A stretch of 43,886 bases of DNA from positions 1 through 43,886 of the forward strand of contig CAZKDK010000002.1 in assembly GCA_964551145.1 (NCBI GenBank), read 5' to 3'. The position numbers were made by a program, and so were the translations under genes. This stretch comes from an uncultured Opitutaceae bacterium. GTDB taxonomy: Bacteria; Verrucomicrobiota; Verrucomicrobiia; Opitutales; Opitutaceae. How positions within the stretch are numbered: position 1 is the stretch's first letter; each line of letters begins with the position of its first letter. Of the stretch, positions 8,920 to 35,342 are shown in pieces. Below the pieces are notes generated by a model. That model ran no database searches. It saw only the letters and a list, made by a program, of their open reading frames with translations, and was not told where the DNA came from.

Positions 8920-8948
8920 AGGCGGAATGCGGCGGAGATCCGGTGTCG

Positions 8949-8972
8949 GTCGATGAGCGGAATCCGTGGTTC
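8949..8972 (-). promoter_or_regulatory. Candidate ECF-type promoter (GAAC-N16-CGAC) upstream of the TonB-receptor gene
   Basis: The minus strand reads GAAC (8972-8969), then 16 nt, then CGAC (8952-8949), in the FecR-receptor intergenic region. This is only a loose match to the generic ECF GAAC..CGTC pattern. Confidence 0.2.
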
Positions 8973-8995
8973 ATGCCTGGGGCCCGCCGGGCACG

Positions 8996-10560: not shown

Positions 10561-10777
10561 GCAGGGGGGCCTATCCGCGGGGTCCGCACCGAGGGGTGTG
10601 GCCGACGGATCGCTCGGAAGCATGAGGCAGGCGGGGCATGGATTCACGCCAATTACCAAGGACAGCCCGCGACGACAGACCCGCTACTCGGTCCGACAAG
10701 AATTCCACCGGGTCCGGCGGGCATCGGCGCGCCGACGCCCCGCCACCGGCCCGGAGGGCAAATTGCACGGTTCCGGC

Positions 10778-11839: not shown

Positions 11840-12003
11840 GGCGGAGGGGCCATGTCTTGCAGCCGCGCGGATCGGTGGCCAGACGATTCTGCGCCGCGGA
11901 ATCCACAGCGCACGGCGTCCCGGTCCGGAGACTTCCCGCACGGGCCGCGGGCGGTCGCTGGATTCGGATTGGCAGCCGGGGGGATTCGCGCCCATGTGGG
12001 GGT

Positions 12004-12504
12004 ATGCTCCAATACATCCGGTCCGCTCGCTCCGCCTCCGCCTGCGATCCCGGTCGGCCCGCGGCGCGGCGCCACTACACGGCTCTGGTCGCGGCGGCAT
12101 TCCTGGCGGCCGCGTCCGCCCGGGGGGTCGAGCGGGTGCTCGAAGTCAGCGCCCCGGCCACGGCCGCGCCCGGCGCGCGCATCGAGGTCACCGTGCGGGC
12201 GAGGACCGATGCCGGCGCCGGGGAGCACATCGGTTTTCTGCACGTGCAGTATTCCGCGGACGGTGGCGGCACGTGGACCGGCTTGTGCTTCGAGCAGAAG
12301 ATCGGAACCGAGGCGACGCGGAAATTCAGCATCACCACTGGCGCGGAGGGCTCGCAGACGCTCGTGCGCGCCCGGGTCGCATTCCGCGGCGGCGTGGCGG
12401 GCGACGTGGACTTTCGCGGCGCGGCGATCAGCTGGCAGGACGACTGGCAGGAGTGGCGGCAGCCGCCGGCGCGGTGGGCCACGACGCATGTGGGCGCGCC
12501 GTAG
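12004..12504 (+). CDS. Small hypothetical secreted protein (166 aa), probably beta-rich
   Basis: Start is the ATG at 12004. A hydrophobic signal-like segment ([20 protein letters not shown]) is followed by [61 protein letters not shown]. Third codon positions are strongly G/C. It is the only plausible frame in this interval. Confidence 0.55.
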
Positions 12505-12509
12505 GCCGG

Positions 12510-13871
12510 TCAGTGCAGGTTGAACGCGCGCTGCAGCGCTTTGGCGCGCTCGATGTGCATGAACTCCAGCGCGGGCGCGGTGGCAGCGGGGGCGGTGGTG
12601 TACGGAGCTCGCATCAGCCGGCGCATTTCGGTGCCGCGCCAGGCAACGAACGGATCCAGGGAGGCGGGCCACCCGCGCAGGCAAAGCCCGGCCAGGCCGG
12701 CCAGCAGCACGCCGGCCGCCAGCCGGCGCAGCCTTGCCCGTGGCAATGCCTTTTCTATCGCCCACGCCAGCAGCAGTCCGGCGAAGGGCAGGGAGGCGAG
12801 CAGTGAGCTGTAGCAATAGCGCGAGCCGATCGCCGCGAGCAGGCCGGTATGGTAGCGGCCGACCCCGAGCAGCGCGGCGTTGCCGAGGTCGTAGACCAGC
12901 AGCAGAACCAGCAGCGTCCGGATCCGTCCGCGACCCACCCACCAGCCGAGCGCAATCACGACGAGCTTGGTGGCGCCCAGCATCAGCGAAAACGCGGAAC
13001 CCAGGGGCGGTTCGCCGAGCAGGAGATGGCCGGGGTTGAGCAGGAAGTAGGCAAGCGAGAATTGCAGGGCCTCACCCCAATGCCCCGCCATGCTCCGCTG
13101 GTTGCCGCCGGCGAACAGGAGGATGGCCGCCGCCACGGCCGCGGCCGGGAGCAGGCAAAGCAGGGCGGCGGACAGGCGGCGGGATCGGGCCGTCCCGTCG
13201 TGGGCGGACGCGGCGGGCGCCAGGATCGCGAGTGCGAGCACGGCTCCCGTCAGCACGCCGCGGGAGAAGCAGCAGGCGCTGGCGGCGGCAAACAGGAACA
13301 GCGGGAAATGCGCCCGCCAGCTCCAGGCGGCCCTGCGGACCGGGGGCCGCTCCAGCCAGAGCAACCCGAGCAGGAGGAACGTCATGGCGAGCACCGCCGA
13401 CCACTGCACCGACCAGCCCAGCGTTTCCAGGTTGGCGGGCGCGAGGGCGAAAACGAGCTGCGTGAAGACCGCGGCAATCCATGGGAAACCGGCTCGCAAG
13501 AGCAGCCGGCCGACCAGGGCGGTGTTGAGCGCGTGCGTCAGCCACAGCAGCCACAGCATCGCGGCGTAGCTGCCGTGGAAGCCGAAAAGGGCGCCGCCCC
13601 AGAGCAGCTTGAACAAGGGCGCGAAGTTCTCGGCGAAGAACTGCCCCGTCCATTTCCAGAAACCCATCTGCGCGATCTGATCGGTCAGGAACAGATCGTC
13701 CGCGAACCAGTAGAGTTCGGCAAACCGCCGGTGCCAGATCAGGAACGGTGCGAGCGCCGCCAGCCCGAGGAGCCAGGGCAGACCCCGCGGCCACGGCACG
13801 CCCGCCGCCAAAGGGCCGGGTTCCGCAGCGGGCCGGCGGCTGGCGTCGGAACGGGGGATCGGTGCGTTCAT
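12510..13871 (-). CDS. Polytopic inner-membrane protein, putative GT-C-type glycosyltransferase or polymerase-like (function uncertain)
   Basis: Start is the ATG at 13871-13869. There are many hydrophobic helices (LPWLLGLAALAPFLIW, AAMLWLLWLTHALNTALVG, WSAVLAMTFLLLGLLWL ...). An acidic motif follows the first helix (ELYWFADDLFLTD). It is the last gene of the long minus-strand array. Confidence 0.6.
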   Translation of the reverse strand: MNAPIPRSDASRRPAAEPGPLAAGVPWPRGLPWLLGLAALAPFLIWHRRFAELYWFADDLFLTDQIAQMGFWKWTGQFFAENFAPLFKLLWGGALFGFHGSYAAMLWLLWLTHALNTALVGRLLLRAGFPWIAAVFTQLVFALAPANLETLGWSVQWSAVLAMTFLLLGLLWLERPPVRRAAWSWRAHFPLFLFAAASACCFSRGVLTGAVLALAILAPAASAHDGTARSRRLSAALLCLLPAAAVAAAILLFAGGNQRSMAGHWGEALQFSLAYFLLNPGHLLLGEPPLGSAFSLMLGATKLVVIALGWWVGRGRIRTLLVLLLVYDLGNAALLGVGRYHTGLLAAIGSRYCYSSLLASLPFAGLLLAWAIEKALPRARLRRLAAGVLLAGLAGLCLRGWPASLDPFVAWRGTEMRRLMRAPYTTAPAATAPALEFMHIERAKALQRAFNLH

Positions 13872-13943
13872 GGGGGGGAGGGCGCGGGGAGTGGCGGGCG
13901 GCGCCGGGTGATCACCCCGGTTTCGGCCGTCCGAACGGCCGGT

Positions 13944-15653
13944 TCACCCCGCGGGTGCCGCTGCCGGCGGCGTGGTCGGCGGGCGGGCGGCCCGGGAAAA
14001 AGACCGCCAGTCGGTCCCGACATCCCAGAAGACGGCGATGACAAACAGCAGCAACATCGGGTAGGCGGAATCCAAATACGTGACCGACAGGCTGGGGAAT
14101 GAGGTGATGTGGACCAGCGCCCCCAGCAGCACGATCGCCGCGCAGGCGCCCCAGGCCGCGGCGGCGAGCACAATCGGGAATGTGAGCCGGCGCTGCCAGA
14201 CCAGGTGCCCGGCTCGCAGGAATGCGACAAGCTGCGCAGCGATCGCGAGCCAGAGCAGGATGTGGCGGAGTACCTTGCCGATCATCTGGAGGACGGACAG
14301 CTTCCAGCTGTCAAGAGCCCCTTGACGGGGCAGCGGCGGATCCAGCGCCGGCGACGGGGCGAGGTTGTCGCGCGACAGGTCGAGGAAGATCTGGAGGGCG
14401 TCGTGATCCCCGATGCTCGCCGGCGGGTAGGCGCTGAAACCGCGGAATGACACCAGGAAATCCGTGAACTCAACCGTCGCCGCGAGCCATTCCCGGGTGA
14501 GTCCGGCGCGCCAGGGCGGCAGGAATCCGCTGCGCCGCGGACCCGCCAGAATCCGGCCGTCGTCGCACGCCTGGTTCACTTCCATGGCGAGCCGGTGGTA
14601 GAACGCCATCGCCTGATCGGCATCATGGCAATATCCCGCCGCCTTCACGGAATCGCGCAGCGCCCACATGAACCAGCCGCCGCCGATCTGGCGCTCCTCC
14701 GAGGGGATGTGGGTGACGAAGCTCGAGGCCCCGGCCCAGCCTTCGCCGATGGGGCCATCGAGGTGGGGACGCAGCAGGGCGAACGTCGGGCTCACCGGAT
14801 AGGCCGCCTCGCGCATCTGCCGCGTGACGGGCACAAAGGGGAGATCGGGACCGGCCCGGACGCGGAGGAGCGCGCCGTAGGCGTCCTTGAATTCGCTGCT
14901 GCGGAACTCCACCGTTCCGAACCAGCCGTAGTGGCGGGCGTTCTCCGCGCACACGATGAACATCGGCACCGCGGCGCACACCAGCGCCAGGCCGCCCGCC
15001 CAGGCCATCGGCCGCCTGGGCACGGGCCGCGCCCGCACGAGGGCCACGACAACGGCCCCGGCCAGCAGCACGACGCTCGGGACGATCCAGACGACGTCCT
15101 CGCGGGTCATCCAGAGCGCCGCGAAGGCGGCACCGAAGAGGGCGGCCCACGGCGCGAGCCGCCGGAAGGGCCCGGCCCGGCGCGCGTACAGGGCGATCAA
15201 GCCGGCGAAGATGAGCAGGGCCAGCGGCGTGGAGATGTGCTGGCGCAGGACCCGGCCGAGCGACGAGGCCTCGAACGACATCGGATTCCAGAGCAGCACC
15301 GCATAGACCGCGAGGCGCGCCCCGCCGCCGCGCACCAGCGGGGCGAGGGCCCGGACGACCGCGGCGCAGGCGCCGGCGTAGGCGAGCTGCTGGGCGAAGC
15401 CGAGCGGCAGCCCGAGGAGAAAGACGAACGCGATCCACAGCGAATAGAACGGGCCCTTGGCCAGCGTGAGCTGGTTGTAGGGGCCGAGCCAGTCGCCGCT
15501 GACGAGCGCATTCGCCAGGTTCATGAACAGGCGGTCGTCGTGTTCGGCGGTGCCGATGGCGAAGATGGCCTGGCCGCGCGTCAGCCAGAGTTTGGCGAGA
15601 GTCAGGGCGATCGCCGCCCAGATCCACCAGCGGTTTTTCCACGAGGCGCTCAT
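13944..15653 (-). CDS. Polytopic membrane protein with a large extracytoplasmic domain, putative GtrC/GT-C-like transferase
   Basis: Start is the ATG at 15653-15651 (MSASWKNRWWIWAAIALTLAKLWL). It overlaps the TGA of the upstream GT2 gene (15652-15650), giving ATGA. An acidic first-loop motif is present (IGTAEHDDRLFMNLANAL). It has ~6 N-terminal TMs, a soluble middle domain and C-terminal TMs. The 259 upstream codons of ORF 13944..16430 are out-of-frame shadow of the GT2 gene. Confidence 0.65.
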   Translation of the reverse strand: MSASWKNRWWIWAAIALTLAKLWLTRGQAIFAIGTAEHDDRLFMNLANALVSGDWLGPYNQLTLAKGPFYSLWIAFVFLLGLPLGFAQQLAYAGACAAVVRALAPLVRGGGARLAVYAVLLWNPMSFEASSLGRVLRQHISTPLALLIFAGLIALYARRAGPFRRLAPWAALFGAAFAALWMTREDVVWIVPSVVLLAGAVVVALVRARPVPRRPMAWAGGLALVCAAVPMFIVCAENARHYGWFGTVEFRSSEFKDAYGALLRVRAGPDLPFVPVTRQMREAAYPVSPTFALLRPHLDGPIGEGWAGASSFVTHIPSEERQIGGGWFMWALRDSVKAAGYCHDADQAMAFYHRLAMEVNQACDDGRILAGPRRSGFLPPWRAGLTREWLAATVEFTDFLVSFRGFSAYPPASIGDHDALQIFLDLSRDNLAPSPALDPPLPRQGALDSWKLSVLQMIGKVLRHILLWLAIAAQLVAFLRAGHLVWQRRLTFPIVLAAAAWGACAAIVLLGALVHITSFPSLSVTYLDSAYPMLLLFVIAVFWDVGTDWRSFSRAARPPTTPPAAAPAG

Positions 15654-16840
15654 TGCGGGTCCTTGCGGGTGTCGAGCCGGAGCATGTTGAGGAAGAAATT
15701 GGTCATGATCACCTGGCAGCCGAGCGTGAGGCTGAGCGCGCCGGGAATCACCCAGCGCAGCATCTGGCCGGGAACCAGGGGTCCGAATCCGCGCTGGCGC
15801 CAGAGCCAGACGGAAAACACGGACAACCCCAGCCCGGCCGCGACGAGGATCAGTCCGGCAATCGTGCCCGTCTCGAGGGTGACGATCCGGAGCCACCGGG
15901 CGAAGCGCGCATCGGGGGAGCGCAAACCGGCCTGGATCGCGAAGAATTTGGCCAGCACGGAGAACGCGACCGCCTGGAAGCCGACGAGCACGGCGATCGC
16001 CGCGAAGAGCAGCGTGTTGATGTCGAACTCGACGCGGCCGACCCGGAAGGGGCCGGGGAGCAGGGCCGCCCCTGCCAGCAGGCCGGCGGCCATCAGGACG
16101 AGGCCGGGATAGAGGAACAGCCAGCGCGGGCTGAACAGGAGCATGAATCGCAGGTGGCGCCAGCCATCGCGCCACGGCCGGAGATGGGGGGGGCGGCCGC
16201 GGCCGTCCGGCCGCAGCACCGAGGGCACCTCGGCGATGCGCAGGCCGAGCAGCGAGGCCTTGATGATCATCTCCGTGGCGAACTCCATCCCGGTCGTCCG
16301 GAGATCCATCCGCCGGTAGGCCTCGGCCGAGAATCCCCGCAGGCCGCAGTGAAAATCGCCGACCGGCGTGCGGAACAGGCGCCGGCCGATCCAGGACAGG
16401 AACGGATTGCCCAGATAGCGGTTCTTCCACGGCATGGCGCCGTCCGCGATGCCGCCGCGGAACCGGTTGCCCATGACGAGGTCGCTGCCGCCGCGCAGCT
16501 TCTCGACGATCAGCGGAATCTGCCCGAAATCGTAGCTGGCGTCCGCGTCACCCATGACGACGAACCGCCCGCGCGCGGCCGCAATACCGGCCCGCAGGGC
16601 GTTGCCGTAGCCGCGTGGCGCGACAGCGACGACGGTCGCCCCTTCCCGGGCGGCGATCGCCGGTGAATCGTCCGTGCTGCCGTTGTCGGCGACCACGATC
16701 TCGGCGGCGATCCCGCCGTGGCGGACCGCCGTCGTCGCCTCCCGGATGCACGCCGCCAGCGTGCGGGCCTCGTTGAGGCAGGGCAGCACCACCGTGAGTT
16801 CCGGACGCGGGCCGGCGGCGGCATCTAGAGGGGCGGACAT
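15650..16840 (-). CDS. Family-2 glycosyltransferase with C-terminal 4-TM domain (polyprenyl-phosphate sugar synthase type, GtrB/ArnC/DPM1-like)
   Basis: Start is the ATG at 16840-16838 (MSAPLD..); the track start at 16873 is a GTG. Motifs are LTVVLPCLNEARTL, IVVADNGSTDDS, GYGNALRAG and VVMGDADASYD (DxD). Four hydrophobic helices follow (WLFLYPGLVLMAAGLLAGAALL ...). Confidence 0.85.
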   Translation of the reverse strand: MSAPLDAAAGPRPELTVVLPCLNEARTLAACIREATTAVRHGGIAAEIVVADNGSTDDSPAIAAREGATVVAVAPRGYGNALRAGIAAARGRFVVMGDADASYDFGQIPLIVEKLRGGSDLVMGNRFRGGIADGAMPWKNRYLGNPFLSWIGRRLFRTPVGDFHCGLRGFSAEAYRRMDLRTTGMEFATEMIIKASLLGLRIAEVPSVLRPDGRGRPPHLRPWRDGWRHLRFMLLFSPRWLFLYPGLVLMAAGLLAGAALLPGPFRVGRVEFDINTLLFAAIAVLVGFQAVAFSVLAKFFAIQAGLRSPDARFARWLRIVTLETGTIAGLILVAAGLGLSVFSVWLWRQRGFGPLVPGQMLRWVIPGALSLTLGCQVIMTNFFLNMLRLDTRKDPQ

Positions 16841-16898
16841 GCGGACGCCACCCAAGGGGCAATTCGGGGTCACGACAAGCCTCGTGTGTTTCGCGGCC

Positions 16899-19181
16899 TC
16901 ATCCGGGCCGGGATGCCGGGTCGCCCGGGATTCGCCGCCGGCGGCGCGCCAGCACCGCCGGCAGCGCGCATCCCGCCAGGCCGAGCGTCGCGGCCAACGC
17001 CAGCACGCGGTGTGTCGGTTCCGCCCGCTCGGCGCGCAGCTGGGCGAGCCAGCGGCGGCCGAAATCCGCGTCGTCGGTGGCCGCCGGCCGCGCGACGCCG
17101 AGCCAGCCGTGTTGTTCCGCGTTGCCGTCGAAGAGGAACAGCGTCGCCTGCCAGTCCCGGAACGCGGCGGCGTCCACCATCCACATGATGACCGCCTCGC
17201 GGGGCTCGGTGGGCGGGACCTCGGCCGCCCGCCACTGCTCCGCGCCAGTCGCCGGGTTCACGAAGCGCCACCGGATCGCGTTGCCCGGCCAGTTGGGCCA
17301 TCCGCTGATCGGCGTCGACAGATACCGGTGCCGCACCGTCGCCGGGTCGCTGCGCAGGATGCCGGTGAATGCGGTGCGTCCCGCCAGGAGCGTGCCGTAC
17401 CAGTACAGGCGCGCGGCGGCGGGCTCCGTCTCCACCGCGCCGACCACGTCCTCCGGCTGGATCCGCCGGTCGGTGTCGCTGTGGAATACGGGGTCGACGA
17501 ACTCGACCTCGTCCGACGCCGGGGAGTAGGCCGCCTGCCAGCGCTGCCGGATGTCGAACAGGAAGGGCTGCGGCCACGCGAGCCAGGCGGCGGCGGCGAG
17601 CGCGGTGCCTCCGCACCAGGCCAGGAACAGCCGCGGCCGGGTCCAGCCGGAGGGGGACGGCGCCGCGGCCGCCTCCGCCGGTGCCGCGCGGGATCCGCCG
17701 GCCAGGACCAGCGCCAGGCCGAGCAGCGCACCGGCGGCCGCCAGCCAGCGGCCGGCCGGCGGCAGCCAGCGGGCGAGCGCGCCCAGGCGCCCGTAATCCG
17801 CGCGCGCCTCGGCGGCCCCGGTTTCCGGCGGAAGGAGGGCGCGGAAGCGGGGTTTGCCCAGCAGCTCGATCACGGTCGGCGGGTAGGTGTAGAGCGTGTC
17901 GCCGATCTTCTCCTGCGAGAGGGTGGCCGGGTCGCCGGTGGCGAGAAACGCGCGGACCGCGGCCAGGTTCTGCGCGTTGACCGCGGGCCGGCGCTCGAGG
18001 TTGTAGAGCGTGTGGCTGGCGGTCGATTCGTGCCAGAGGCCCGTGGCCGAGATGCCGATCCAGACCGCCGCCAGCACGGCGACCGCGGCCCGCCGGGCTC
18101 GGGCGGGTGCGGCCAGCCAGAGCACGCCCAGGCTCGCGGCGTTCACGAGGTAGCCGAGCGCGAGGAAATCGCAGTAGCGAGAGACAAAGCCGGCCGTGTC
18201 GCCTCCGCGTCCGTAGCCGATCGCGGCGGCCTGCGACGCCACCCACAGGCCCACGGCGAGGAGAAAGGCCTCGTGCCCGGTCCCGCGCTGGCGGCCGAGG
18301 CACCGGCCGGCGAAGACCAGGAACGGGAGGTACATCAGGAAGGCCCAGCCGGGGTGGGGCAGCGGCCAGCCGAGCTGCCGCAGGCAGACGTCGAGCGCCA
18401 CCCGCCAGGTGTCGGCGCTGTGCCCGGCGGTGACCGTCAGCGGCGGGGACAGCGCGAAGAACAGGACGGCCCCGAGCGCGGCCAGCGCGAGGCCGGCCGC
18501 GGCCCCGCGGCGGTCCCCCTCCCCGCGCCGCAGGCGCAGCAGGAGGAGCGGCGCGGCGGCGGCGTACGCGAGCACGCCCGAGTGCTGCGTGAACAGCACG
18601 AGAACGCCGGCCAGCTGTCCGATCCACCAGCCGGGCGAGAAGCCCGGCCGGGCGGCGATGCCCCAGAGGTAGACGAGGGACAGGCCGACCTGGAGGAAGA
18701 CGAGCGACTGAATGCCCCACAGGGTGTTCTCCCACGTGAACGGCAGCGCGAGGACGAATCCGGCGAACAGCGCGAAGACCGCGCCGAGCCGGCGGCCGAG
18801 GGCCGGGGCGGCCGTGCCGAGGAACAGCCAGATCGCGGCGCCGTACAGCAGGGCGTTGACGGAGGTCTCGAGCAGGTTGTTCCACTGGCCGTTCAGCCGC
18901 GCCAGGGCGAACGACAGGAGGCGCGTCAGGACGGGCCAATGGTCGTTGAGCGGGGCGAGGAACGCGTTCCATCCCAGGCGGCCGTCCGCCCACGGGCCGA
19001 GCAGGTCGGCGGCCGTGCTCTTCCACTCGTCGCGGAAGGGGAGGATGGTGCCGTACTCATGGATCAGCTCGAGCCGCCCGCCCGCGGCCAGCAGCGCGCC
19101 GGCAAGGGCGGCCAGCAGCCACCAGCCGCGCCCGCGCCCGGCGGCGTCCGGGGGCGTCACTTGATCTCGATGTCCGTCCAT
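16899..19181 (-). CDS. Large polytopic membrane protein (760 aa) with soluble C-terminal domain and terminal TM + Arg5 tail; putative GT-C-like
   Basis: Start is the ATG at 19181-19179 (MDGHRDQVTPP..GWWLLAALAGALLAAGG). An in-frame GTG at 19160 would instead give a GTGA overlap with the upstream stop. An acidic first-loop motif is present (ILPFRDEWKSTAADLL), followed by many TMs. The protein ends ..AEPTHRVLALAATLGLAGCALPAVLARRRRRIPG. The rest of ORF 16899..21827 is shadow of the next gene. Confidence 0.65.
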   Translation of the reverse strand: MDGHRDQVTPPDAAGRGRGWWLLAALAGALLAAGGRLELIHEYGTILPFRDEWKSTAADLLGPWADGRLGWNAFLAPLNDHWPVLTRLLSFALARLNGQWNNLLETSVNALLYGAAIWLFLGTAAPALGRRLGAVFALFAGFVLALPFTWENTLWGIQSLVFLQVGLSLVYLWGIAARPGFSPGWWIGQLAGVLVLFTQHSGVLAYAAAAPLLLLRLRRGEGDRRGAAAGLALAALGAVLFFALSPPLTVTAGHSADTWRVALDVCLRQLGWPLPHPGWAFLMYLPFLVFAGRCLGRQRGTGHEAFLLAVGLWVASQAAAIGYGRGGDTAGFVSRYCDFLALGYLVNAASLGVLWLAAPARARRAAVAVLAAVWIGISATGLWHESTASHTLYNLERRPAVNAQNLAAVRAFLATGDPATLSQEKIGDTLYTYPPTVIELLGKPRFRALLPPETGAAEARADYGRLGALARWLPPAGRWLAAAGALLGLALVLAGGSRAAPAEAAAAPSPSGWTRPRLFLAWCGGTALAAAAWLAWPQPFLFDIRQRWQAAYSPASDEVEFVDPVFHSDTDRRIQPEDVVGAVETEPAAARLYWYGTLLAGRTAFTGILRSDPATVRHRYLSTPISGWPNWPGNAIRWRFVNPATGAEQWRAAEVPPTEPREAVIMWMVDAAAFRDWQATLFLFDGNAEQHGWLGVARPAATDDADFGRRWLAQLRAERAEPTHRVLALAATLGLAGCALPAVLARRRRRIPGDPASRPG

Positions 19182-21520
19182 GCCGTCCAATCCCATCCGT
19201 TGTCGTGGTGGGGCCCGGGATCGATCTCCAGGCGGAGCTGGCCGCCCGCGACGCCGCCCAGGTCGGCGCGGAACGGGTGGAGGCCGCGGTCGGCGGGATT
19301 CTCCCGCGGCTTCAGCTCCTGCGAGAAGAGCACGGCCTGCTCGCTGCCGCGGTCCCACACGACGCGGAACACGGCGCCGTCGGTCCGGCCCTCCAGGTAG
19401 GCGCCCGCGACGTAGCCGAAGGCGCCGGAGATCTCGCGCGCCCCGCGCGGCACCACGAACACCATCTCGCTCGGCGCATGCAGCACCTCGGCCTTGCGGC
19501 CGTCGATCTCCGCCTCGTTCGGCGCGGCGAAGGCCTGGAAGCTGACGGGGCAGGTCTTGAACATCCAGAACTGCTCCTGGAGCGTGTGCTGGTAAAAGGC
19601 CGCGCCCGCGGTCGAGGGGGTCACGGCGAAGAAGCTGATCCGCGCGCGCGCGGCGAAATACTTCCGGTCCCCCCGCGCCACCGCGACCGTGATGCGGCGG
19701 ACCCACCGGTCGGGCCTGCCGCCGGCGAAGTTCACCAGGTCGGTGACGTCGTTGACGACCGGGTTGAGCATGAAACCGGTCCGGCCCTGGCCGGGCGGCA
19801 GGCGGAACTCGGTGCGGGCGCCGTCCTGCTGTTCGATCACCAGCTGCACGAGCGGCGCCTTGTAGACCAGGTCGCGCAGGCGGCCGAGCCAGGAGTACTC
19901 GAGATCGATCGTCGCCCACACGTGGCGGTCCGCCAGGTCGCCGAGCTCGCAGGGCGCGTTCAGGGCGGTCGCCACGGTGCGGATACGCCGCGGCTCGAGC
20001 GCGGCCCGGTCGGGCGGGGCGGCCCGGCGGCGCCAGAGCTGGAAGCCCTTTTCCGCGAACTGGTACTCGTAGTCGTGGACCAGGAGGTTGAGCAGCCGGG
20101 AATCGTCGAACGCGGCGAGGCGCCCGTCGATGGTCTCGACCTTGAGCAGGACGAATTGCGGGGCCTGCGCCGAGGCGTAGAAGTCCTCGTTGAGCCGGGC
20201 GAGGCCGGGCGTGTAGGCGGAGTAGCTCTGGAAGACCGGCCGCGGGTGGTAGTTGAGTCCGTTGAACAGCGCGAACGCCTGCTCGTAGCCGATCACGTCG
20301 ACCGTGGCCTGCCCCACGGTCTTGCGCACCCGGGGCAGGTCCGCCACCTGCCGCTGTTCGCGCAGCCGCTCGTCGAAGCTCCGGCGGAAGCTGCCCCAGT
20401 GGAGCGCGTGGCTGACATTGTCCCAGAGCTTGTCCTGCATCTGGCTGCCGGCGTACCGGACCACGCCGGGCAGGGCGTCGTAGGTTCCCGCCACGCAGAG
20501 GATCCCGGCCGGCACGAGCAGCGCCCGCTGCAGGCGGCGCCACCGGAGGCCGTCGGCCAGCAGCGCGGGGAACCCGACGACCGGCAGGAGCGCGCAGAAG
20601 AAGAAGCCGATCATGTGGCCGTCGGCCCGGACGAATCCGTGCTTCCAGTTGAGGTAGATCAGGGCGGCGAGGATGCCGCCGTTGGCCAGCGCGCGCGGCC
20701 GGTCCGGATGGCCCCACACGTACAGGACCGCGTAGACGACGAGCAGGACCAGGACGGTCACGCCCTTCCAGAACGCTTCGGGCGGCGTCGACAGTCCCAT
20801 GGCCTCCTGGTAGCCGCTGCTGACCTCCAGCGAGGTCAGGAGGTACCGGGGGAGGTTCAGCGGATTCTGCCCGCAGAGAATCCACACCGCCAGGTAGCCG
20901 CCGGCGAACCAGAGGGCGAGCTGGAGGGCCGCCCGGCGCCGCCCCAGCGCCAGCGCGTGCAGGCCCGCGGCCGCCACGCAGACCGCCGCCAGCATGAGGT
21001 TGGTGAACTTGACGATGGCGAGCAGCGCCAGCAGCAGCGCGAGACACGCGCTGTCGGCGTGGACCGCCTTGTCGGTGCGGCGCACCAGCTCCCAGCCCGC
21101 CAGGGCGATGGCGATCATGTGCAGGGCGTCCTCGTAGGTGACGCCGAGCAGCACGAAGAAGATGAAATAGACGGCCCGTCCCGTCCCGCGCAGGTCGCGG
21201 GCCCCGGCCATGATGAGGCCGGCGAACACCATGGCCGAGAGGACCTGCCAGAGCACCAGGCTGCCGAACTGCAGGCCCGAATAGGTGCGCCCCATCAGGA
21301 ACCCGAGGGGACCGTAGGTGAACACGATGTCGCGCCCCATCTGCAGGCCCTGGTGGAAGAACCAGCCCAGCGCCATGCGCCACGAGGCGTCGAGGTCCGG
21401 CAGCGGATAGCGCGGCAGCGTGACGATGGCCGTCGCGAGGAGAAGCCAGAGCAGGAAGCTGCCCAGCCGGCCTCCGGAGGCGGGGACAGGGCCGGCCGGC
21501 GACGTCGAGTCGGAGGGCAT
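19157..21520 (-). CDS. Polytopic membrane protein (787 aa) with soluble domain and one C-terminal NPCBM-like module
   Basis: Start is the ATG at 21520-21518 (MPSDSTSPAGP..LGSFLLWLLLATAIVTL). The first loop is LPDLDASWRMALGWFFHQGLQMGRDIVFTYGPLGFL, followed by ~12 TMs. The C-terminus is ..VLHAPSEMVFVVPRGAREISGAFGYV..GRTDGAVFRVVWD..LFSQELKPRENPADRGLHPFRADL..GGQLRLEIDPGPHHDNGWDWTAWTDIEIK. Confidence 0.75.
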   Translation of the reverse strand: MPSDSTSPAGPVPASGGRLGSFLLWLLLATAIVTLPRYPLPDLDASWRMALGWFFHQGLQMGRDIVFTYGPLGFLMGRTYSGLQFGSLVLWQVLSAMVFAGLIMAGARDLRGTGRAVYFIFFVLLGVTYEDALHMIAIALAGWELVRRTDKAVHADSACLALLLALLAIVKFTNLMLAAVCVAAAGLHALALGRRRAALQLALWFAGGYLAVWILCGQNPLNLPRYLLTSLEVSSGYQEAMGLSTPPEAFWKGVTVLVLLVVYAVLYVWGHPDRPRALANGGILAALIYLNWKHGFVRADGHMIGFFFCALLPVVGFPALLADGLRWRRLQRALLVPAGILCVAGTYDALPGVVRYAGSQMQDKLWDNVSHALHWGSFRRSFDERLREQRQVADLPRVRKTVGQATVDVIGYEQAFALFNGLNYHPRPVFQSYSAYTPGLARLNEDFYASAQAPQFVLLKVETIDGRLAAFDDSRLLNLLVHDYEYQFAEKGFQLWRRRAAPPDRAALEPRRIRTVATALNAPCELGDLADRHVWATIDLEYSWLGRLRDLVYKAPLVQLVIEQQDGARTEFRLPPGQGRTGFMLNPVVNDVTDLVNFAGGRPDRWVRRITVAVARGDRKYFAARARISFFAVTPSTAGAAFYQHTLQEQFWMFKTCPVSFQAFAAPNEAEIDGRKAEVLHAPSEMVFVVPRGAREISGAFGYVAGAYLEGRTDGAVFRVVWDRGSEQAVLFSQELKPRENPADRGLHPFRADLGGVAGGQLRLEIDPGPHHDNGWDWTAWTDIEIK

Positions 21521-21552
21521 GGGGTGAAGTCTGGAGTCGGGCGGACGGGGGT

Positions 21553-24000
21553 CTAGCGGGAAGTGTCGGCCTGGAGATCGGTCCAGAAGGTCCAGTCGGA
21601 GGCGCCGTTGCCGGCGGGGCCGGTGGTGATGACGAACTCCAGCGTGCTGCCGGCCGGATGCGGCGGCAGGTCCACCGAGAAGGTGTGCACGGGCCGGTCC
21701 TCCGGGTGATCCCGCGGCCGCAGCAGGTGATGGTAGAGGACGACCCGCTCGCCCCGCCGGGGCACCCAGGCCACGAGAAACTCGGCGCCGTCCGTCGGGG
21801 CCGGATTGTCCTGCGCGTACGCGCCATCGCGGAATCCGAAGCCGCCCTGGACCCGCAGGACCTGGTCGGGCAGGCGATAGCTCAGGAGGGAGGGCGCATG
21901 CAGGAAGATCAGCCGGTGGCCCTTGCCCTCCTCGACCAGCGGCTTGAAGGGGGTCTGGATGGTGAGCGGCTGCAGTCCGCTCGTCACGCACGGCAGGCGG
22001 TAGGCGGCCATTTGCTCCGGGGGCACGGCGGCCGCCGCGCAGGTGACGTCCAGCACCGGGCTGTCGCGAAACCTGCCGCTGGCGGTGACGGCCCGGGCGG
22101 ACACCCGGTAGCGGCCGGGGCCGAGTTGGCCAAAGGGGGCGACGAACTGGATCGTGATCTTGCCGGTCGGCTGGAAGCTGGCGGAGTCAACCACGGCGTC
22201 GTTCACCCTCAGTTCCAGGCGCTGCAGGCGGGCGGCCGGGTCGTTTCCGACGATGACAAAGGGCGTCGGCTCGGGCCCGGCCTGGGGCGCCCCGATGAGT
22301 TCGGCGGGCGCCGGGTCGCCCGCCGGTCCGCCCGCGAGGGCCACCGGCGTCCGCCGCGCGGCGTCGCGGATCAGGTGGAGGCGGAACCCCTGGGGGACGA
22401 ACTGGCCCGACTCGGCCTCGACGTAGTTGCGGGCGACGAACGATTCCAGCCGCGGGAACAGGTTCAGCGGATATTTGTGGAAATTGCGGTGAGGGCCGGG
22501 GCTGCAGTCGACGAAGAACGCCGGGCGCCGGGCGTCGAGCTCGGCCAGCAGGGTCTGCATCGTCCCGGGGACGATCGCGTAGCTGGTGTCCCGGCCGGGC
22601 TCCATGTTGGTCCAGGGGATGAGGCCGGTTTGGAACGAGCAGTAGGTGAAGCGCGAGGCCGGGCGGCGGTTGGCGTAGAGATAGATGTCCGGATTGTAGC
22701 CCCAGACGAAGATCCGTTCGCGGGGGGTCGTGAGCGCGTCGATGAACGCGCACGCGCGCATTGCCGGATCGTGCGGGTACTCGTCGTGCCCCCGGTTGGC
22801 GAGCGGGCTGATGATCAGGCTGAGCGCGGTCGCGCCGAGTCCGAGGAAGATCAGGACCGCGGCCGCGCCCGCCGATCGCGAGCGGTCCGGACGCAGGACC
22901 AGCCGGCGCGCGAGCGAGCCCGCGGCGGCCAGCAGTTCGCCGGCGCAGAGGGCAAACGCGGGCAGGCACTGGATGTAGTAGTGTTCAAAGCCCCGGCCGC
23001 TGGCCGCGGCGCCCGCCAGCGACGTCGCGTTCCAGGCGAGGAGATAAAAGACCCAGGGCTGGGTCGCGCGTTCCTCGGGGGTCGGCCGCAGCTGCGCCAC
23101 GCGGAGCAACAGGGCGCCGGCGCCGCCGGCCAGCGCGGCCAGCACGAGCGGGTAGCGCTCCCACAGCCGCCAGAACGGGATGTAGTTCATCACCAGATGC
23201 TGCATGCCCGCGACGTCGGCCCCGTAGTAGAGCAGGTTGTAGGTGCAGGTATAGAAGACCATGTCGCCGAAGGCGCCGTGGAGGGCGAACCAGGCGCACG
23301 AAACGGCGTTGACCACGAGGAAGCCCAGCAGGATGCCGGCGACACCGTGGAACGCGGCGCGCCAGGGCTTCCGGCCCGTGACGGCGAGGAAACCGAGCGT
23401 GAGCAGGGGCGCGGCCAGGTCCACCAGACCCGGCTGCTTCGAGAGCGCGGCGAGGGCGAACAGGCCGCCGGTGATCGCGGGGGCGACGAAGCCGGCCCGA
23501 TCCAGCGTCCGCCAGAACCACCAGGTCCCCGAGGTCGTGAACAGGATCACAAACCACTCGGTATTGGCCGAGTTGCCGTCGGCCGAATAGAGCAGGTTGG
23601 TGGTCAGGGCGCAGAAGACGAGCGTGGCCCAGCCGCCCGCCACGCGGTTCCGGGTGCGGCTTCCGATCAGGAACACGCCGAGCGCGGTGCCGGCGATCAT
23701 CGCCGCCACGACGGCGCGCACGGCCCACAGGTTGTTCTCGCCGCAGAGGCCGAAGATCCCGGCGACGGCATAGTAGGTGAGCGGCGTTCGCTGGTCGACG
23801 GCGTCGCGGTAGAGCACGCCGCCGTGGAGGAGGGTTCGGGCGGCGGCTGCGTGGATCGCCTCATCGACGTTCCACAAAGGCACGCCCAGGGTCGGCCAGC
23901 GGAGGAAGAGGATCCATCCGAGCAGCACGGCGAAAAGCGCGAGGATGATCGCGGACGGCCGGCGGAAGCGGCGGGTGGCAGGCGACGGCGGGGATTCCAT
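21553..24000 (-). CDS. ArnT/PMT-like GT-C glycosyltransferase (815 aa) + Ig-like domain + one C-terminal NPCBM-like module
   Basis: Start is the ATG at 24000-23998 (MESPPSPATRRFRRPSAIILALFAVLLGWILFL). The GT-C-style first loop is LGVPLWNVDEAIHAAAARTLLHGGVLYRDAVDQRTPL, followed by many TMs. The soluble part includes RIFVWGYNPDIYLYANRRPASRFTY. The C-terminus is ..FLHAPSLLSYRLP..GGFGFRDGAY..TDGAEFLVAW..LYHHLLRPRDHPEDRPVHTFSVDLP..GSTLEFVITTGPAGNGASDWTFWTDL. Confidence 0.8.
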   Translation of the reverse strand: MESPPSPATRRFRRPSAIILALFAVLLGWILFLRWPTLGVPLWNVDEAIHAAAARTLLHGGVLYRDAVDQRTPLTYYAVAGIFGLCGENNLWAVRAVVAAMIAGTALGVFLIGSRTRNRVAGGWATLVFCALTTNLLYSADGNSANTEWFVILFTTSGTWWFWRTLDRAGFVAPAITGGLFALAALSKQPGLVDLAAPLLTLGFLAVTGRKPWRAAFHGVAGILLGFLVVNAVSCAWFALHGAFGDMVFYTCTYNLLYYGADVAGMQHLVMNYIPFWRLWERYPLVLAALAGGAGALLLRVAQLRPTPEERATQPWVFYLLAWNATSLAGAAASGRGFEHYYIQCLPAFALCAGELLAAAGSLARRLVLRPDRSRSAGAAAVLIFLGLGATALSLIISPLANRGHDEYPHDPAMRACAFIDALTTPRERIFVWGYNPDIYLYANRRPASRFTYCSFQTGLIPWTNMEPGRDTSYAIVPGTMQTLLAELDARRPAFFVDCSPGPHRNFHKYPLNLFPRLESFVARNYVEAESGQFVPQGFRLHLIRDAARRTPVALAGGPAGDPAPAELIGAPQAGPEPTPFVIVGNDPAARLQRLELRVNDAVVDSASFQPTGKITIQFVAPFGQLGPGRYRVSARAVTASGRFRDSPVLDVTCAAAAVPPEQMAAYRLPCVTSGLQPLTIQTPFKPLVEEGKGHRLIFLHAPSLLSYRLPDQVLRVQGGFGFRDGAYAQDNPAPTDGAEFLVAWVPRRGERVVLYHHLLRPRDHPEDRPVHTFSVDLPPHPAGSTLEFVITTGPAGNGASDWTFWTDLQADTSR

Positions 24001-24017
24001 GGCGGAGCGGTGGGCGA

Positions 24018-27000
24018 TCAGGGCGCGCCGATGAAGTTCGCCCAATAGGCCCAGTCGAATGCGTTGCTGTTGCGGGGGCCGGGCCCGATGATGAACAGGA
24101 GACGGCCGGGAAGGTCCGGCGGCAGCTCAACCCGGGCGCTCTGGCGGCCCCGGTCGTTCGGATTGGTGCCCGGAGTCAGCTGGCGATGGAAGAGGGTCGT
24201 CACCGCGCCGCTGCGATCCTGGAACTTCACGAACACGTCGACGCCGTCGGTGCGCCGGCCCGGTTCGGGATTGGCATAGCTGCCAGGTTCGAGGCCGTAG
24301 CTGAAGGAAACGGCCTCGAGGGCCGGCGGCCGGTCATAGATCAGCCGCGAGGGTGCGTGGGCGCCCCAGACATCCGTGTCGGTCTGCTGCATCCCGAGGC
24401 CATTGAAAGTTTCGCTTTCGACCGGCACGAGGATACGGCCGCCCCAGACGATGTCCGGTCCCGGACCCTGCGCCCGGAGATCGCCGAGGTAGGCCCAGTC
24501 GAAGGCGGTGTTGCTCTTGGGCCCGGGTCCGACCCGCACGATGATGCGGCCCGAGTTCTCCAGGGGCAGCTTGACCCGGGTGGTCTGCGGACCGCGGTCG
24601 CCCGGATTGTTGCGGGGATCCATCAACCGGTCGAAGAGGCGCTCCAGACGAAGGTCGGGATGCTCGAATTCCACGACGATCTCGATGCCGTCCGACCCGG
24701 TCCCGCGGGCGGGGTCGTAGGCATGCTCGTCGAGCCCGTACGTGAAGATGAGCGAGCTCATCCCGGAAACGTAGGGGTAGACCAGCTTGGCGGGACTCTG
24801 GGCGCTCCAGCGTCCCTGTTCGAGGGGCTCCATCGGGCGGCCGTCAAACATTTCGCCGGTGACCGCGGGGATCCGTTTTTCGCCGTAGCGCAGGTCGGGC
24901 CCCACGCCCTGGCCGCCGAGATTCGCCCAGTAGGTCCAGTCGAACGCCGGGTCGTTCATGGGGCCGGGCAGAAACTGGAGGATGAGCCGGCCGCTCTTGT
25001 GCGGGGGGATGTCGACCTGGCTCGTCTGGCGCCCCTGATCGGGGCCGATGGCCTTCGGATTCAGGCGGCGCCAGAAAAGCTGGGTGACGCCGCCGTCCGC
25101 CCGCTCAAAGCTGATGACCACATCGGCGCCCGTGGTGCCGTCGCCCTGCGGCCGGTTCTCGTACGCCTCGCGGTCGACGCCATAGCTGAAGGTCAGCTTC
25201 TTCAGGTCGGGCGGGCATTCGTACACGAACCGGGATGGCGCGTGCGCCTCCCACCGCGGGCCGTTCTTGTCCTCCTCGAAACCCACGCCGCCCTCGAGGG
25301 TGCCGCCCTCGACGGGCAGCAGGATCCGGTCTCCGAGCTTGATGCGCGGGCCGGTGAGCGGCTCCGGCGGCGGAGGCTGGCGGCAGAGCGCGAGATCTAC
25401 GGGACGGCTGACGTGCCAGCCGTCGGTCCGCCGGACCGCCGCGCGGAACCCGGTGTCGCTGCCGGCCAGGTCCGCGCGATCGACGAAGAAGCCGGCGTCG
25501 CAGGGCCGGGTCGCCGGATAGACCAGCCGGCGGTAGGGCCGGTCGCCCTGGTAGATGACGATCTCGTCCGCGCCGGCGGGGGCCTTCACCTCCAGCACGG
25601 GCAGGCGGCCGCCGTGAACGGTCAGGGTGACGGCGACCTTGATCCGGTCGTCTTCGGGAGTGGACGCCGCCAGGGGGCCGGCCGGGAGCGGGGCGAGGCG
25701 GCGGTAGAGCTTCATCCCGGAGTTCTGGGTCGCCCCATAGTCGACCAGCGCGAAATCGCGCGTGACCAGGGTCCAGAGGCTGTCCTGCCGGTAGAGCGGA
25801 TACTTGAGGTAGCCGCGCAGGTTCAGCGTGTCGGCGATGAGGGCGGGCGGATGCCGGTCGAGGTCCTCCCGCAGGCGCTCCCAGGATCCCGGAACGACGG
25901 CGTACCGGGTGTCGACGAGCAGGTCCAGGTTGGTCCAGGGAATCATGCCCGTCAGATAGTTGGTGTAGATGAACCGCGTGCTGGGCAGGCGCTGGCTGAA
26001 GAAATACAGTTCCGGCTCATAGCCCCACACGAAGATGCGGTCCGCCGGCGCCGTGTACTCGCGCACCAGCAGGCCCATCGCCTTCGTGCCGTCGTCCTGC
26101 GGGGAGAACCTCAGGCTGCGCCGCCGGCAGTCGAAGCCGGTGACGACCACCGCGACCGCGAGGAGCCCCGCTCCGGCCGCGGCCAGGCCCGGGCGGCCGC
26201 GGCGCAGGGCCGCCACCTGCTCGAGCAGCCGGGCGACGGTCCATCCGCAGGCCAGGCTCAGGCCCGGAATCACCTGGGCGCTGTAATGCGAGAACTCGCG
26301 CCCGCTGATGACGGTGGAGACCAGCCCCGCGGCGGTCGCGCCCAGGATCAGCCAGGGCAGGAGGGGCGCCGCCGCCGGCCGCTGCCGCAGGTCGCGCCAG
26401 ACGCGCCGGAGCAGGAGGATCGCCGCCGCCACGCCGGCCACCAGCGCCGCCGGCATGTTCTCCCGGAGGAGCCGGAAGGGGATCCGCACGGCCCACAGGC
26501 GCTCCCAGAGCGGGACTTCGGGCACGTAGTACTTCGTGTTGTAGGTCCAGGCATAGAACCGCAGATCGTCGATCGCCCGGTTGGCGGCGAAATACGCGAT
26601 CATGCCGGCCATGATGATGGCGAAGCCGGCGAGTTCTCCCGCCCCGAGGCTGAGGCAGGCCCGGCGCCGGTCGGAGCGCGTCCACGCGAGGAGGCCGGCG
26701 AGGACCAGGGTCACGCCCAGGTCGAGCACGCCGGGCTGCTTGCAGAGGGCCGCCAGTCCGAAGCAGGCCCCGACCGCCGCGCCCCGCCAGAAACCGGGGC
26801 GGGCCTGGGCGGCGGCGAACCCCCAGTAGCCGGCGACGGAGAAGAAGACCACGAACCAGCCCGTGTGCGCCGACAGCGTGTCCGGCACTCCCAGCATGAG
26901 GAAGGTGAGGAGCGAAAAGAAGACCGCGGCGGCGATGCCCGCCTTCTCATCGCCGAGGCGGCGGGCGGTCAGCCAGAGCAGCACGGCGCAGGCGCCGAGC

Positions 27001-27263
27001 ATCAGGGCGACGGCCCCGTGCACGGCGCGCGCGTTCCATTCGCCGCACACGGCGAACACCGCCGCCTTCAGGTAGGGCACGAGGGGACTGCGGTTGTCGG
27101 CGGCATCGCGATAGATGACGCCGCCGTGCAGCACTTCCTCGCCCATGGTGAACGTCGAGCCCTCATCCAGGTTCCAGATGGCGCGCGGCAGCCAGGGGGC
27201 GCGGAGCCCGAAGGCTCCGACGACCAGGACCAGCGCGAACAGCGGTCTCCAGATCTTGGACAT
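24018..27263 (-). CDS. ArnT/PMT-like GT-C glycosyltransferase (1081 aa), paralog of 21553..24000, + Ig-like domain + three tandem NPCBM-like modules
   Basis: Start is the ATG at 27263-27261 (MSKIWRPLFALVLVVGAFGL). The first loop is PRAIWNLDEGSTFTMGEEVLHGGVIYRDAADNRSPL, closely parallel to the previous gene. RIFVWGYEPELYFFSQRLPSTRFIY is also shared. The three C-terminal repeats are listed as a separate feature. Confidence 0.85.
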   Translation of the reverse strand: MSKIWRPLFALVLVVGAFGLRAPWLPRAIWNLDEGSTFTMGEEVLHGGVIYRDAADNRSPLVPYLKAAVFAVCGEWNARAVHGAVALMLGACAVLLWLTARRLGDEKAGIAAAVFFSLLTFLMLGVPDTLSAHTGWFVVFFSVAGYWGFAAAQARPGFWRGAAVGACFGLAALCKQPGVLDLGVTLVLAGLLAWTRSDRRRACLSLGAGELAGFAIIMAGMIAYFAANRAIDDLRFYAWTYNTKYYVPEVPLWERLWAVRIPFRLLRENMPAALVAGVAAAILLLRRVWRDLRQRPAAAPLLPWLILGATAAGLVSTVISGREFSHYSAQVIPGLSLACGWTVARLLEQVAALRRGRPGLAAAGAGLLAVAVVVTGFDCRRRSLRFSPQDDGTKAMGLLVREYTAPADRIFVWGYEPELYFFSQRLPSTRFIYTNYLTGMIPWTNLDLLVDTRYAVVPGSWERLREDLDRHPPALIADTLNLRGYLKYPLYRQDSLWTLVTRDFALVDYGATQNSGMKLYRRLAPLPAGPLAASTPEDDRIKVAVTLTVHGGRLPVLEVKAPAGADEIVIYQGDRPYRRLVYPATRPCDAGFFVDRADLAGSDTGFRAAVRRTDGWHVSRPVDLALCRQPPPPEPLTGPRIKLGDRILLPVEGGTLEGGVGFEEDKNGPRWEAHAPSRFVYECPPDLKKLTFSYGVDREAYENRPQGDGTTGADVVISFERADGGVTQLFWRRLNPKAIGPDQGRQTSQVDIPPHKSGRLILQFLPGPMNDPAFDWTYWANLGGQGVGPDLRYGEKRIPAVTGEMFDGRPMEPLEQGRWSAQSPAKLVYPYVSGMSSLIFTYGLDEHAYDPARGTGSDGIEIVVEFEHPDLRLERLFDRLMDPRNNPGDRGPQTTRVKLPLENSGRIIVRVGPGPKSNTAFDWAYLGDLRAQGPGPDIVWGGRILVPVESETFNGLGMQQTDTDVWGAHAPSRLIYDRPPALEAVSFSYGLEPGSYANPEPGRRTDGVDVFVKFQDRSGAVTTLFHRQLTPGTNPNDRGRQSARVELPPDLPGRLLFIIGPGPRNSNAFDWAYWANFIGAP
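24021..25352 (-). repeat. Three tandem ~145-aa coding repeats (NPCBM-like modules): 24915-25352, 24471-24902, 24021-24464
   Basis: R1 is GPRIKLGDRILLPVEGG..WEAHAPSRFVYECPP..LTFSYGVDREAY..GADVVISFE..LFWRRLNP..PDQGRQTSQVDIP..GRLILQFLPGPMNDPAFDWTYWANL. R2 is GPDLRYGEKRIPAV..WSAQSPAKLVYPYV..LIFTYGLDEHAY..DGIEIVVEFE..LFDRLMDP..PGDRGPQTTRVKLP..GRIIVRVGPGPKSNTAFDWAYLGDL. R3 is GPDIVWGGRILVPVE..WGAHAPSRLIYDRPP..VSFSYGLEPGSY..DGVDVFVKFQ..LFHRQLTP..PNDRGRQSARVELP..GRLLFIIGPGPRNSNAFDWAYWANF. Confidence 0.85.
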
Positions 27264-31230: not shown

Positions 31231-31410
31231 GCCGCGCGGGGAGGGAGTGGGGGTGGCGAGGCTTGTAGCCGATTCCATGCGCCCGGACAAGCGCCGCCTG
31301 CAACGCCGGTTGATTCAATCATCGCTCCGTAGATCTCCGGCGCCCGCCGGTTCACCGTCGTGGCCAGCTGGCTCTTCATGAATGCGCCGTGAGTGTCACG
31401 GAAATCGGCG

Positions 31411-35326: not shown

Positions 35327-35342
35327 TTGTATTGACGCGACC

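Follow-up and report, generated by a model that had tools for sequence, protein, structure and literature searches.

What does a run of large polytopic membrane proteins, interrupted by a single membrane-anchored glycosyltransferase (GT) of family GT2, contribute to the envelope of a bacterium of the family Opitutaceae? The question is raised by a 43,886-nucleotide stretch of DNA from an uncultured member of this family (the window; assembly GCA_964551145.1, contig CAZKDK010000002.1, positions 1 to 43,886, forward strand), in which a sequence-only reading had taken six neighbouring genes for an array of GT-C-like enzymes served by the one GT2. The answer favored here, with moderate confidence, is that the array functions in the periplasmic extension or decoration of an envelope glycan from a polyprenyl-phosphate sugar. 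The array and the two further genes on which the argument draws are as follows:

12510-13871, minus strand: A, a GT-C-fold membrane protein of 453 aa with the motif WFADD, outside database families
13944-15653, minus strand: B, a membrane protein of 569 aa with the motif AEHDD
15650-16873, minus strand: C, a GT2 of 407 aa with a C-terminal transmembrane (TM) domain
16899-19160, minus strand: D, a membrane protein of 753 aa with the motif FRDEW, homologue of A
19157-21520, minus strand: E, 787 aa, with an N-terminal TM domain and the motif LPDLDASW
21553-24045, minus strand: F, 830 aa from a TTG start or 815 aa from the ATG at 24000, with the motif WNVDEA
24018-27263, minus strand: G, a PMT_2-type GT-C of 1081 aa with the motif WNLDEG
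27334-31278, minus strand: H, a soluble GT2 plus GT4 protein of 1314 aa (Pfam), directly upstream of G
42767-43885, plus strand: Z, a partial gene that leaves the window, with a PMT_2 match below the cut-off

The G+C content is ~70-75% across the window, and the raw open reading frame (ORF) lists of such high-GC DNA are rich in artefacts; genes were fixed by third-position GC and inspection of start codons. The seven minus-strand genes A to G form a nearly unbroken run and are backed by a coding-phase third-position GC of 0.85-0.97, with spacings of +72 nt (A-B), -4 nt (B-C), +25 nt (C-D), -4 nt (D-E), +32 nt (E-F) and -28 or +17 nt (F-G). The public annotation of identical contigs has matching products for D, C, B and A (753, 407, 569 and 453 aa) and also agrees for the downstream neighbours of A-D. 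The existence of six neighbouring polytopic genes on the minus strand is, thus, confirmed by third-position GC and, for D, B and A, by the public calls, and the range of spacings first reported (-25 to +72 nt) is near that found here (-28 to +72 nt).

In GT-C enzymes the membrane domain comprises some 7-14 TM helices (PMC11127046, PMC6801728). Soon after the first of these (TM1) comes a DxD, DD or DE motif without which activity is lost, and further conserved charged residues lie in later luminal loops (PMC6801728). By hydropathy, each of the six proteins A, B, D, E, F and G has 7-11 hydrophobic segments, and the AlphaFold (AF2) models of A and B are almost wholly helical bundles. All six of the acidic motifs quoted in the sequence-only reading are present, and sit 8-25 residues past the first hydrophobic helix, with the acidic residues being D58 of A, D39/D40 of B, D56 of D, D44 of E, D61/E62 of F and D33/E34 of G. 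Among the 26-83 relatives aligned for each family, the acidic residue is kept in at least 93-95%; it is invariant or nearly so in all six families, D58 of A and D39 of B included, and the motifs are, thus, not chance occurrences. In five of the six proteins an invariant basic residue follows 127-146 positions after the acidic residue (A R204, B R184, E K171, F K203 and G K175). This arrangement of acidic and basic residues fits the description of GT-C enzymes in PMC6801728.

G is the sole protein of the array that falls in a curated GT-C family. It matches Pfam PMT_2 (PF13231) over residues 58-202 with an E value of 5.3e-9 and 36.9 bits, against a cut-off of 26.1 bits that A, B, D, E and F do not reach, and its D33, E34 and K175 are invariant. 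F is a full-length paralogue of G (BLASTP, 33% over 815 aa, E 8.6e-86; hhalign of the TM domains, 100%) in which D61, E62 and K203 are invariant, and its own Pfam search gives no match except Mannosyl_trans4 at E 0.049. A gene is indeed present at 42767, where a seventh GT-C had been proposed; however, Z is partial and its PMT_2 match (2.5e-4, 21.8 bits) is below the 26.1-bit cut-off, such that its GT-C status is not established. The best PDB profile match of Z, Pmt2, is not significant (E 1.9), and 10 related loci have a Z homologue within the array. The earlier statement that four of the six proteins are unassignable to a known family holds for A, B, D and E, which have no Pfam, NCBIfam or PDB sequence match. 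HMMER profiles of the A, B, D, E and Z families, and G alone, gave nothing significant against all PDB sequences, and Pfam scans at E<=1 of 34, 38 and 46 family members returned no consistent GT-C family.

For A, which has zero sequence matches in Pfam, NCBIfam and PDB and 113 homologues (those with a named source being Opitutaceae), the evidence comes from structure. The AF2 model (pLDDT 93.6, pTM 0.92) was compared with the PDB by Foldseek, and the top 16 matches are all GT-C enzymes (yeast and human STT3, Pmt4, PglB, Pmt1/2, AftA and PimE), with the best TM-score (TMq, 0.53) to Pmt4; Emb is also among the structural matches of A and B. Unrelated transporters appear in the list after the GT-C matches and at low probability. 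D likewise has no family match in Pfam, NCBIfam or PDB sequences, and its family (1849 representative clusters at E<=1e-3, one of them from Bordetella sputigena) shows no consistent Pfam match in the 9 + 46 members scanned. Profile comparison nevertheless identifies D as a homologue of A: hhalign aligns the two over 380 columns with 94% probability and P 9.2e-8 (fused segments having been removed from the A alignment), compared to P 0.075-0.21 for reversed-profile controls. The aligned invariant residues include E156/E149, W160/W153, Q163/Q156, R330/R339 and an S-R-Y motif (D/A numbering), and D56, W58, H86 and R92 are invariant in D. The TM domain of G is also detected by D (hhalign 49%, P 1.7e-4).

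B has no family match in Pfam, NCBIfam or PDB sequences, nor do scans of its family members find one. Its AF2 model (pLDDT 90.7) is built of an N-terminal module, a soluble insert of ~210 aa and three C-terminal TM helices, and the best Foldseek matches are ArnT structures 5f15 and 5ezm (E 5e-4 and 8e-4, probability 1.0, TMq 0.31-0.32), followed by EmbC, STT3, PglB, EmbB, AftA and Pmt1; non-GT-C matches have probabilities <0.25. The model fits an ArnT-like N-terminal module set in a differing overall build, and suggests a similarity to solved GT-C enzymes that is local only.

Natural fusions join B to the A/D proteins. B is fused N-terminally to A in six proteins of ~995 aa (P0313, P0334, P0339, P0346, P0348 and P0351) and to D in proteins of ~1290 aa (P0369, P0372 and P0378), and D-D tandem fusions are also found (P0362, P0365, P0370 and P0373). 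Given the homology of A and D, one B-type module together with one A/D-type module makes up the recurring unit. The B-type and A/D-type modules may, thus, work as a pair, based on side-by-side genes and single-polypeptide fusions in relatives, perhaps as a heterodimer analogous to Pmt1-Pmt2 or EmbA-EmbB. The ~995-aa relatives of B were at one point considered B-GT2 fusions, but have no GT2 domain and are B-A fusions instead. Fused sequences also account for a profile match of A3 to A1 (E 1e-46), which is an artefact of an A1 alignment that held partly fused B-A sequences; after the fused parts were trimmed, hhalign found no significant similarity between B and A.

E is the member most weakly linked to the others. 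Its N-terminal ~345 aa form the TM domain, which is followed by a soluble stretch and, at the C-terminus, by a module resembling NPCBM; D44, K171 and the motif FTYGPLG are invariant. E has 981 homologues, and a search of species genomes gave 543 matches, almost all from Opitutaceae/Opitutales. No Pfam or PDB match was found for E, only two of 34 E-family members match GT87/DUF2029 (PF09594; best E 0.045), P0151 and P0220 (which bear the NCBI name DUF2029) have no PF09594 match at E<=0.01, and the divergent E paralogues give no consistent GT-C family by Pfam. Profile alignment by hhalign links E to D (P 8.6e-4) and G (P 1.2e-3), both under the minimum of 3.9e-3 observed for 30 reversed controls. 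These alignments are transitive, agreeing within 4 residues at 45 of 45 positions for D-E-G, 41 of 41 for A-D-E, 63 of 63 for D-F-E and 57 of 76 for A-E-G; of the 10 control triangles built with a reversed E, not one was consistent. On these profile relations, E is very probably a GT-C enzyme. The GT-C reading, thus, stands for A, B, D, F and G through Pfam, paralogy, models and hhalign, and for E has weak, in-register profile links only. It is highly likely that at least five of the six proteins have the GT-C fold and fairly likely that all six do.

A C-terminal module of ~130 aa that ends in DW(T/A)xW is common to E, F, G (three copies) and the full-length homologues of Z. The copies of G (residues 663-782, 806-932 and 969-1077) match the C-termini of E and F, and sequence comparison places the modules at:

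19157-19550, minus strand: module of E
21553-21950, minus strand: module of F
24018-25280, minus strand: three modules of G

Homology between E and F outside the C-terminal 132 residues was sought and not found. The shared module gives sub-threshold matches to NPCBM/NEW2 and may represent a distinct carbohydrate-binding family. The periplasmic GT-C of family GT136 has a carbohydrate-binding module (CBM) that binds the unmodified polysaccharide backbone, and CBMs are also present on EmbA/B/C and AftD (PMC11127046).

C is the candidate for the enzyme that makes the sugar donor. It matches Pfam Glycos_transf_2 (1.4e-21), is annotated in precomputed data with PF26629 (GT2_TM_C), and has about four hydrophobic segments at the C-terminus. 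The best NCBIfam models are AglJ (7.6e-37), dolichyl-P-hexose transferase, PpgS and ArnC, all far under their equivalog cut-offs, and the PDB sequence matches are ArnC (5e-12), Pyrococcus DPMS (4e-9) and GtrB (4e-4). These family matches place C among the polyprenyl-phosphate glycosyltransferases of ArnC/DPMS/AglJ/GtrB type. The remaining GT2 domains of the window sit in soluble giant proteins; thus, C is the sole candidate lipid-phosphate sugar synthase in the window, and the claim of a single membrane-anchored GT2 as donor synthase is upheld by its family matches and TM tail. The TM tail was also considered as a fused GtrA-like flippase, and no GtrA-like match was found. The genes C and B overlap by 4 nt at the start of B, and B follows C in every related locus that has C and sufficient downstream sequence.

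The coupling of C to B could also be viewed as an ArnC/ArnT-like pair that adds one sugar to lipid A or the lipopolysaccharide (LPS) core, with the other membrane proteins unrelated or non-catalytic. As in the ArnC-ArnT pathway, synthase and transferase genes are coupled, the closest solved relative of C is ArnC, the best structural match of B is ArnT, C and B overlap by 4 nt in the window and remain adjacent in relatives, and a sugar-nucleotide enzyme of the short-chain dehydrogenase/reductase (SDR) type is a conserved neighbour. However, C scores 41.6 bits against the ArnC equivalog (PRK10714), for which the curated cut-off is 529 bits, homologues of ArnA, ArnB, ArnD, ArnE and ArnF are not present, such that the remaining arn operon is absent, and B differs from ArnT by its 210-aa soluble insert and TM-score of 0.31-0.32. 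The other families, too, appear to be catalytic, given their invariant acidic motifs and expanded copy numbers, and this explanation is very improbable.

Is the array peculiar to this contig? One genome per species was scanned, yielding 543 stretches that encode an E relative, and the window proteins were searched by tblastn against the best 80 loci. Among these 80, the conserved order is H-G(1-3)-F-E(1-3)-(B)-D-C-B-A-[small plus-strand gene]-epimerase-ECF sigma, where ECF denotes extracytoplasmic function. In 36 of the 38 related loci of >=20 kb, 3-7 GT-C-like genes (median 4.5) occur in the same order, and H flanks the array in 24 of the 38. The array is, thus, a lineage trait and not an accident of the contig. 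The copy numbers of G, E and B differ between relatives. Source-named homologues of A, B and E are almost wholly from Opitutaceae or the broader Opitutales/Verrucomicrobiota (e.g., Lacunisphaera, Oleiharenicola, Didemnitutus and Cephaloticoccus), and cultured carriers of the cluster include Oleiharenicola sp. Vm1 and O. lentus. A locus of another clade (L001, JGI Ga0302325_10000003, 7611-11296) has E-like (797 aa) and A-like (431 aa) genes that overlap by 4 nt, as do E and D in the window, and is surrounded by two small GT2 genes (246-248 aa) and by genes for the nucleotide sugars of rhamnose and heptose; thus, the modules recombine into other glycan loci.

The genes that lie upstream of the array, beyond H, are predicted to act on glycans in the cytoplasm:

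31411-32037, minus strand: methyltransferase (Pfam)
32117-34354, minus strand: GT4 (Pfam)
34532-35326, plus strand: sulfotransferase-like protein (weak Sulfotransfer_3 match)
35304-36218, plus strand: sulfotransferase-like paralogue of the preceding protein, 51% identical (weak Sulfotransfer_3 match)
36367-38613, minus strand: GT4 (Pfam)
38623-42927, minus strand: giant protein of 1434 aa with two GT2 domains and a GT4 domain (Pfam)

None of the genes at 31411-42927 encodes a convincing TM segment, and H is also without one. The tandem plus-strand pair amid minus-strand GT genes could possibly be glycan sulfotransferases. Both of the ~745-aa GT4 proteins have an N-terminal region of ~350 aa without family assignment. 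With the called start codons, the 1434-aa minus-strand GT (from 42927) and Z (from 42767) overlap by ~160 nt; one of the two starts is probably wrong.

Oligosaccharyltransferases use diphosphate-linked oligosaccharides, and PMT_2-type enzymes and ArnT use monophosphate donors. The large cytoplasmic GTs directly upstream bring up a second explanation, in which some or all of the GT-C-like proteins use undecaprenyl-diphosphate oligosaccharides made by the soluble GT2/GT4 proteins and act as a ligase, polymerase or oligosaccharyltransferase (PglB, PglL, WaaL or Wzy-like). That the best Foldseek matches of A are STT3 and PglB is in keeping with such a role, as is the finding of no Wzy, WaaL or other polymerase or ligase gene in the window. 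It is nevertheless rather unlikely, given that C, of the monophosphate-sugar type, is tightly and conservedly coupled to B and the array, that G is of PMT_2 type and B best matches ArnT (both monophosphate users), that WaaL and Wzy structures are absent from the listed top 50 Foldseek matches for A or B, and that Wzy_C is detected in only one of 46 D-family members at E 0.27.

Downstream of A, the neighbours are of a different kind:

12004-12504, plus strand: 166 aa, N-terminus resembling a signal peptide, gene convergent with A (translation, public call)
10778-11839, minus strand: epimerase/dehydratase, SDR-type sugar-nucleotide enzyme of 353 aa (Pfam Epimerase 4.9e-38), downstream of A
9994-10659, minus strand: ECF sigma factor, in the directly downstream unit
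8996-9997, minus strand: FecR-like anti-sigma factor
5543-8974, minus strand: TonB-dependent receptor with STN and CarboxypepD_reg domains

The SDR gene is 78-87% identical across Opitutaceae loci, far above the GT-C genes, and reaches no NCBIfam equivalog. The listed 440-aa ORF (10778-12100) includes a spurious arginine-rich N-terminal extension, with the true start at ~11839 and the public call at 353 aa. The 166-aa gene is kept beside A in related loci, and its product has no family match; a minus-strand ORF (12075-12482), considered as a small gene or possible flippase, has stop codons in relatives, the true gene being on the plus strand. The ECF sigma gene adjoins the array in many related loci, an adjacency that hints at a regulatory link. 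Beyond the TonB receptor (979-5390, minus strand) are encoded a 1300-aa NHL/RCC1/Ig repeat protein and a 163-aa acyl-carrier-protein-like product (148 aa in the public call).

The secreted repeat proteins encoded nearby make it conceivable that the array is one of PMT-type protein O-glycosyltransferases acting on secreted or envelope proteins, such as the 1300-aa NHL/RCC1/Ig or the 166-aa protein. G passes the PMT_2 (GT39-GT83) cut-off, F is its paralogue, DE motifs follow TM1, A has its best TM-score to Pmt4, and bacterial PMTs occur in Actinobacteria (PMC12331936). By contrast, A, B, D and E match no Pfam GT-C model, the array proteins have no detectable MIR domain and carry NPCBM-like modules where MIR would be, and these modules suggest the binding of glycan, not peptide. 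The array is also always beside polysaccharide-type GT2/GT4 genes, and the sigma/FecR/TonB-receptor unit separates it from the NHL/RCC1 gene. Protein O-glycosylation is, thus, quite improbable as the role of the array.

Periplasmic modification of an envelope glycan from a polyprenyl-phosphate sugar would proceed by the following steps: (i) C, assigned to its family by sequence matches, would use a nucleotide sugar to glycosylate polyprenyl phosphate on the cytoplasmic side of the membrane, (ii) the lipid-linked sugar would be flipped to the periplasmic face, (iii) A, B, D, F, G, very probably E, and Z would pass the sugar to a glycan acceptor by way of the acidic residue that follows TM1, and (iv) the acceptor would be a polymer made by the neighbouring soluble GT2/GT4 giants and held by the NPCBM-like modules of E, F, G and Z. 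The makers of the backbone would probably be H, the 38623-42927 protein, the two ~745-aa GT4 proteins, the methyltransferase and the sulfotransferase-like pair. For step (iii), fold and motif are observed or strongly indicated, and catalysis is the predicted consequence; the extracytoplasmic side of the acidic loops would follow solely from the structural matches of the A and B models to GT-C enzymes. To the observed fold or family of most parts, and to the motifs, synteny and fusions, the scheme would, thus, add the type of donor, the orientation, the acceptor and the physical pairing. GT-C enzymes of differing specificity would act after flipping, and the differences in copy number of G, E and B between species would change the branching or linkage of the glycan.

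Several observations weigh against this scheme or the fold assignments beneath it. Charge counts around TM1 do not decide on which side of the membrane the acidic loops lie. The global TM-scores of B (0.31-0.36) reflect a poor superposition of the whole protein on ArnT, and the profile links of B to G and D (P 0.007-0.01) are inside the range of reversed controls. The profile links of E are each weak on their own (P ~1e-3), and the transitivity controls overall include a few false positives, e.g., A-B(reversed)-G at 24 of 24. The NPCBM matches, detected in 16 of 34 E-family members, are sub-threshold (best E 8e-4). No GtrA, SMR or MATE flippase family and no Wzx or Wzm/Wzt exporter is found in the called genes of the 44-kb window; a flippase gene could lie in another part of the genome. 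The STT3/PglB-type enzymes that best match the model of A use diphosphate-linked donors and not monophosphate sugars.

Among known systems, periplasmic synthase-flippase-GT-C systems have already been described in Gram-negative bacteria (PMC11127046). The array is similar to these three-component systems (GtrA/GtrB/GtrC and the Citrobacter PPPRS-MATE-GT136; PMC11127046) in having a synthase gene beside GT-C genes, an extra CBM-like module on the GT-C and adjoining cytoplasmic polysaccharide genes. By contrast, the window has one synthase and 6-7 GT-C genes from at least four sequence families, not one GT-C, has no flippase gene found and no sequence match to the GT136 or GtrC families, and has relatives with natural tandem fusions of GT-C modules. 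Similarly to mycobacterial arabinan/mannan assembly (EmbA/B/C, AftA-D, PimE and Mpt, with DPA/PPM as donors), one lipid-phosphate donor could feed many GT-C enzymes that bear CBMs and are apparently paired, and Emb, AftA and PimE are among the structural matches of A and B. The likeness is in fold only, however, as there is no Emb/Aft sequence homology and no Arabinose_trans match, the DPPR synthase, DprE1/E2 and UbiA-type synthase are not found in the window, C is of GT2 type, and the host is a Gram-negative verrucomicrobium. The view of the sequence-only reading that the array recalls actinobacterial rather than O-antigen loci is, thus, not established, considering that soluble GT2/GT4, methyltransferase and sulfotransferase-like genes adjoin the array, that the window has no gene of the mycobacterial donor pathway, and that Gram-negative counterparts are known (PMC11127046). 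By analogy, the locus appears functionally nearest to the three-component systems and the mycobacterial scheme of one donor and many GT-C enzymes, being a sequence member of neither.

A literature search on Opitutaceae and GT-C found no papers. What appears new is the unusually dense and conserved GT-C array, the families absent from databases and the natural module fusions. GT-C enzymes are difficult to detect by sequence, and A, B, D and E are examples that escape Pfam, NCBIfam and PDB searches, with A and B linked to GT-C by models and D and E by profiles. Defining these families, of which D alone has ~1850 clusters, would fill a gap in the classification of glycosyltransferases.

Only tentatively can a broader proposal be made, namely that Opitutaceae may build a major envelope glycan mostly outside the cytoplasm with an expandable GT-C toolkit, in which at least three families (A/D, B and E) lie outside Pfam, and probably outside the existing classification of glycosyltransferases as well, and B and A/D form obligate pairs. 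Such a toolkit would be an independent counterpart of mycobacterial arabinan/mannan assembly, which the D family would extend to other phyla (e.g., Bordetella). Verrucomicrobiota are a poorly studied and environmentally abundant phylum, for which the array, its variation in copy number and its fusions provide a testable model of how surface glycans may be built.

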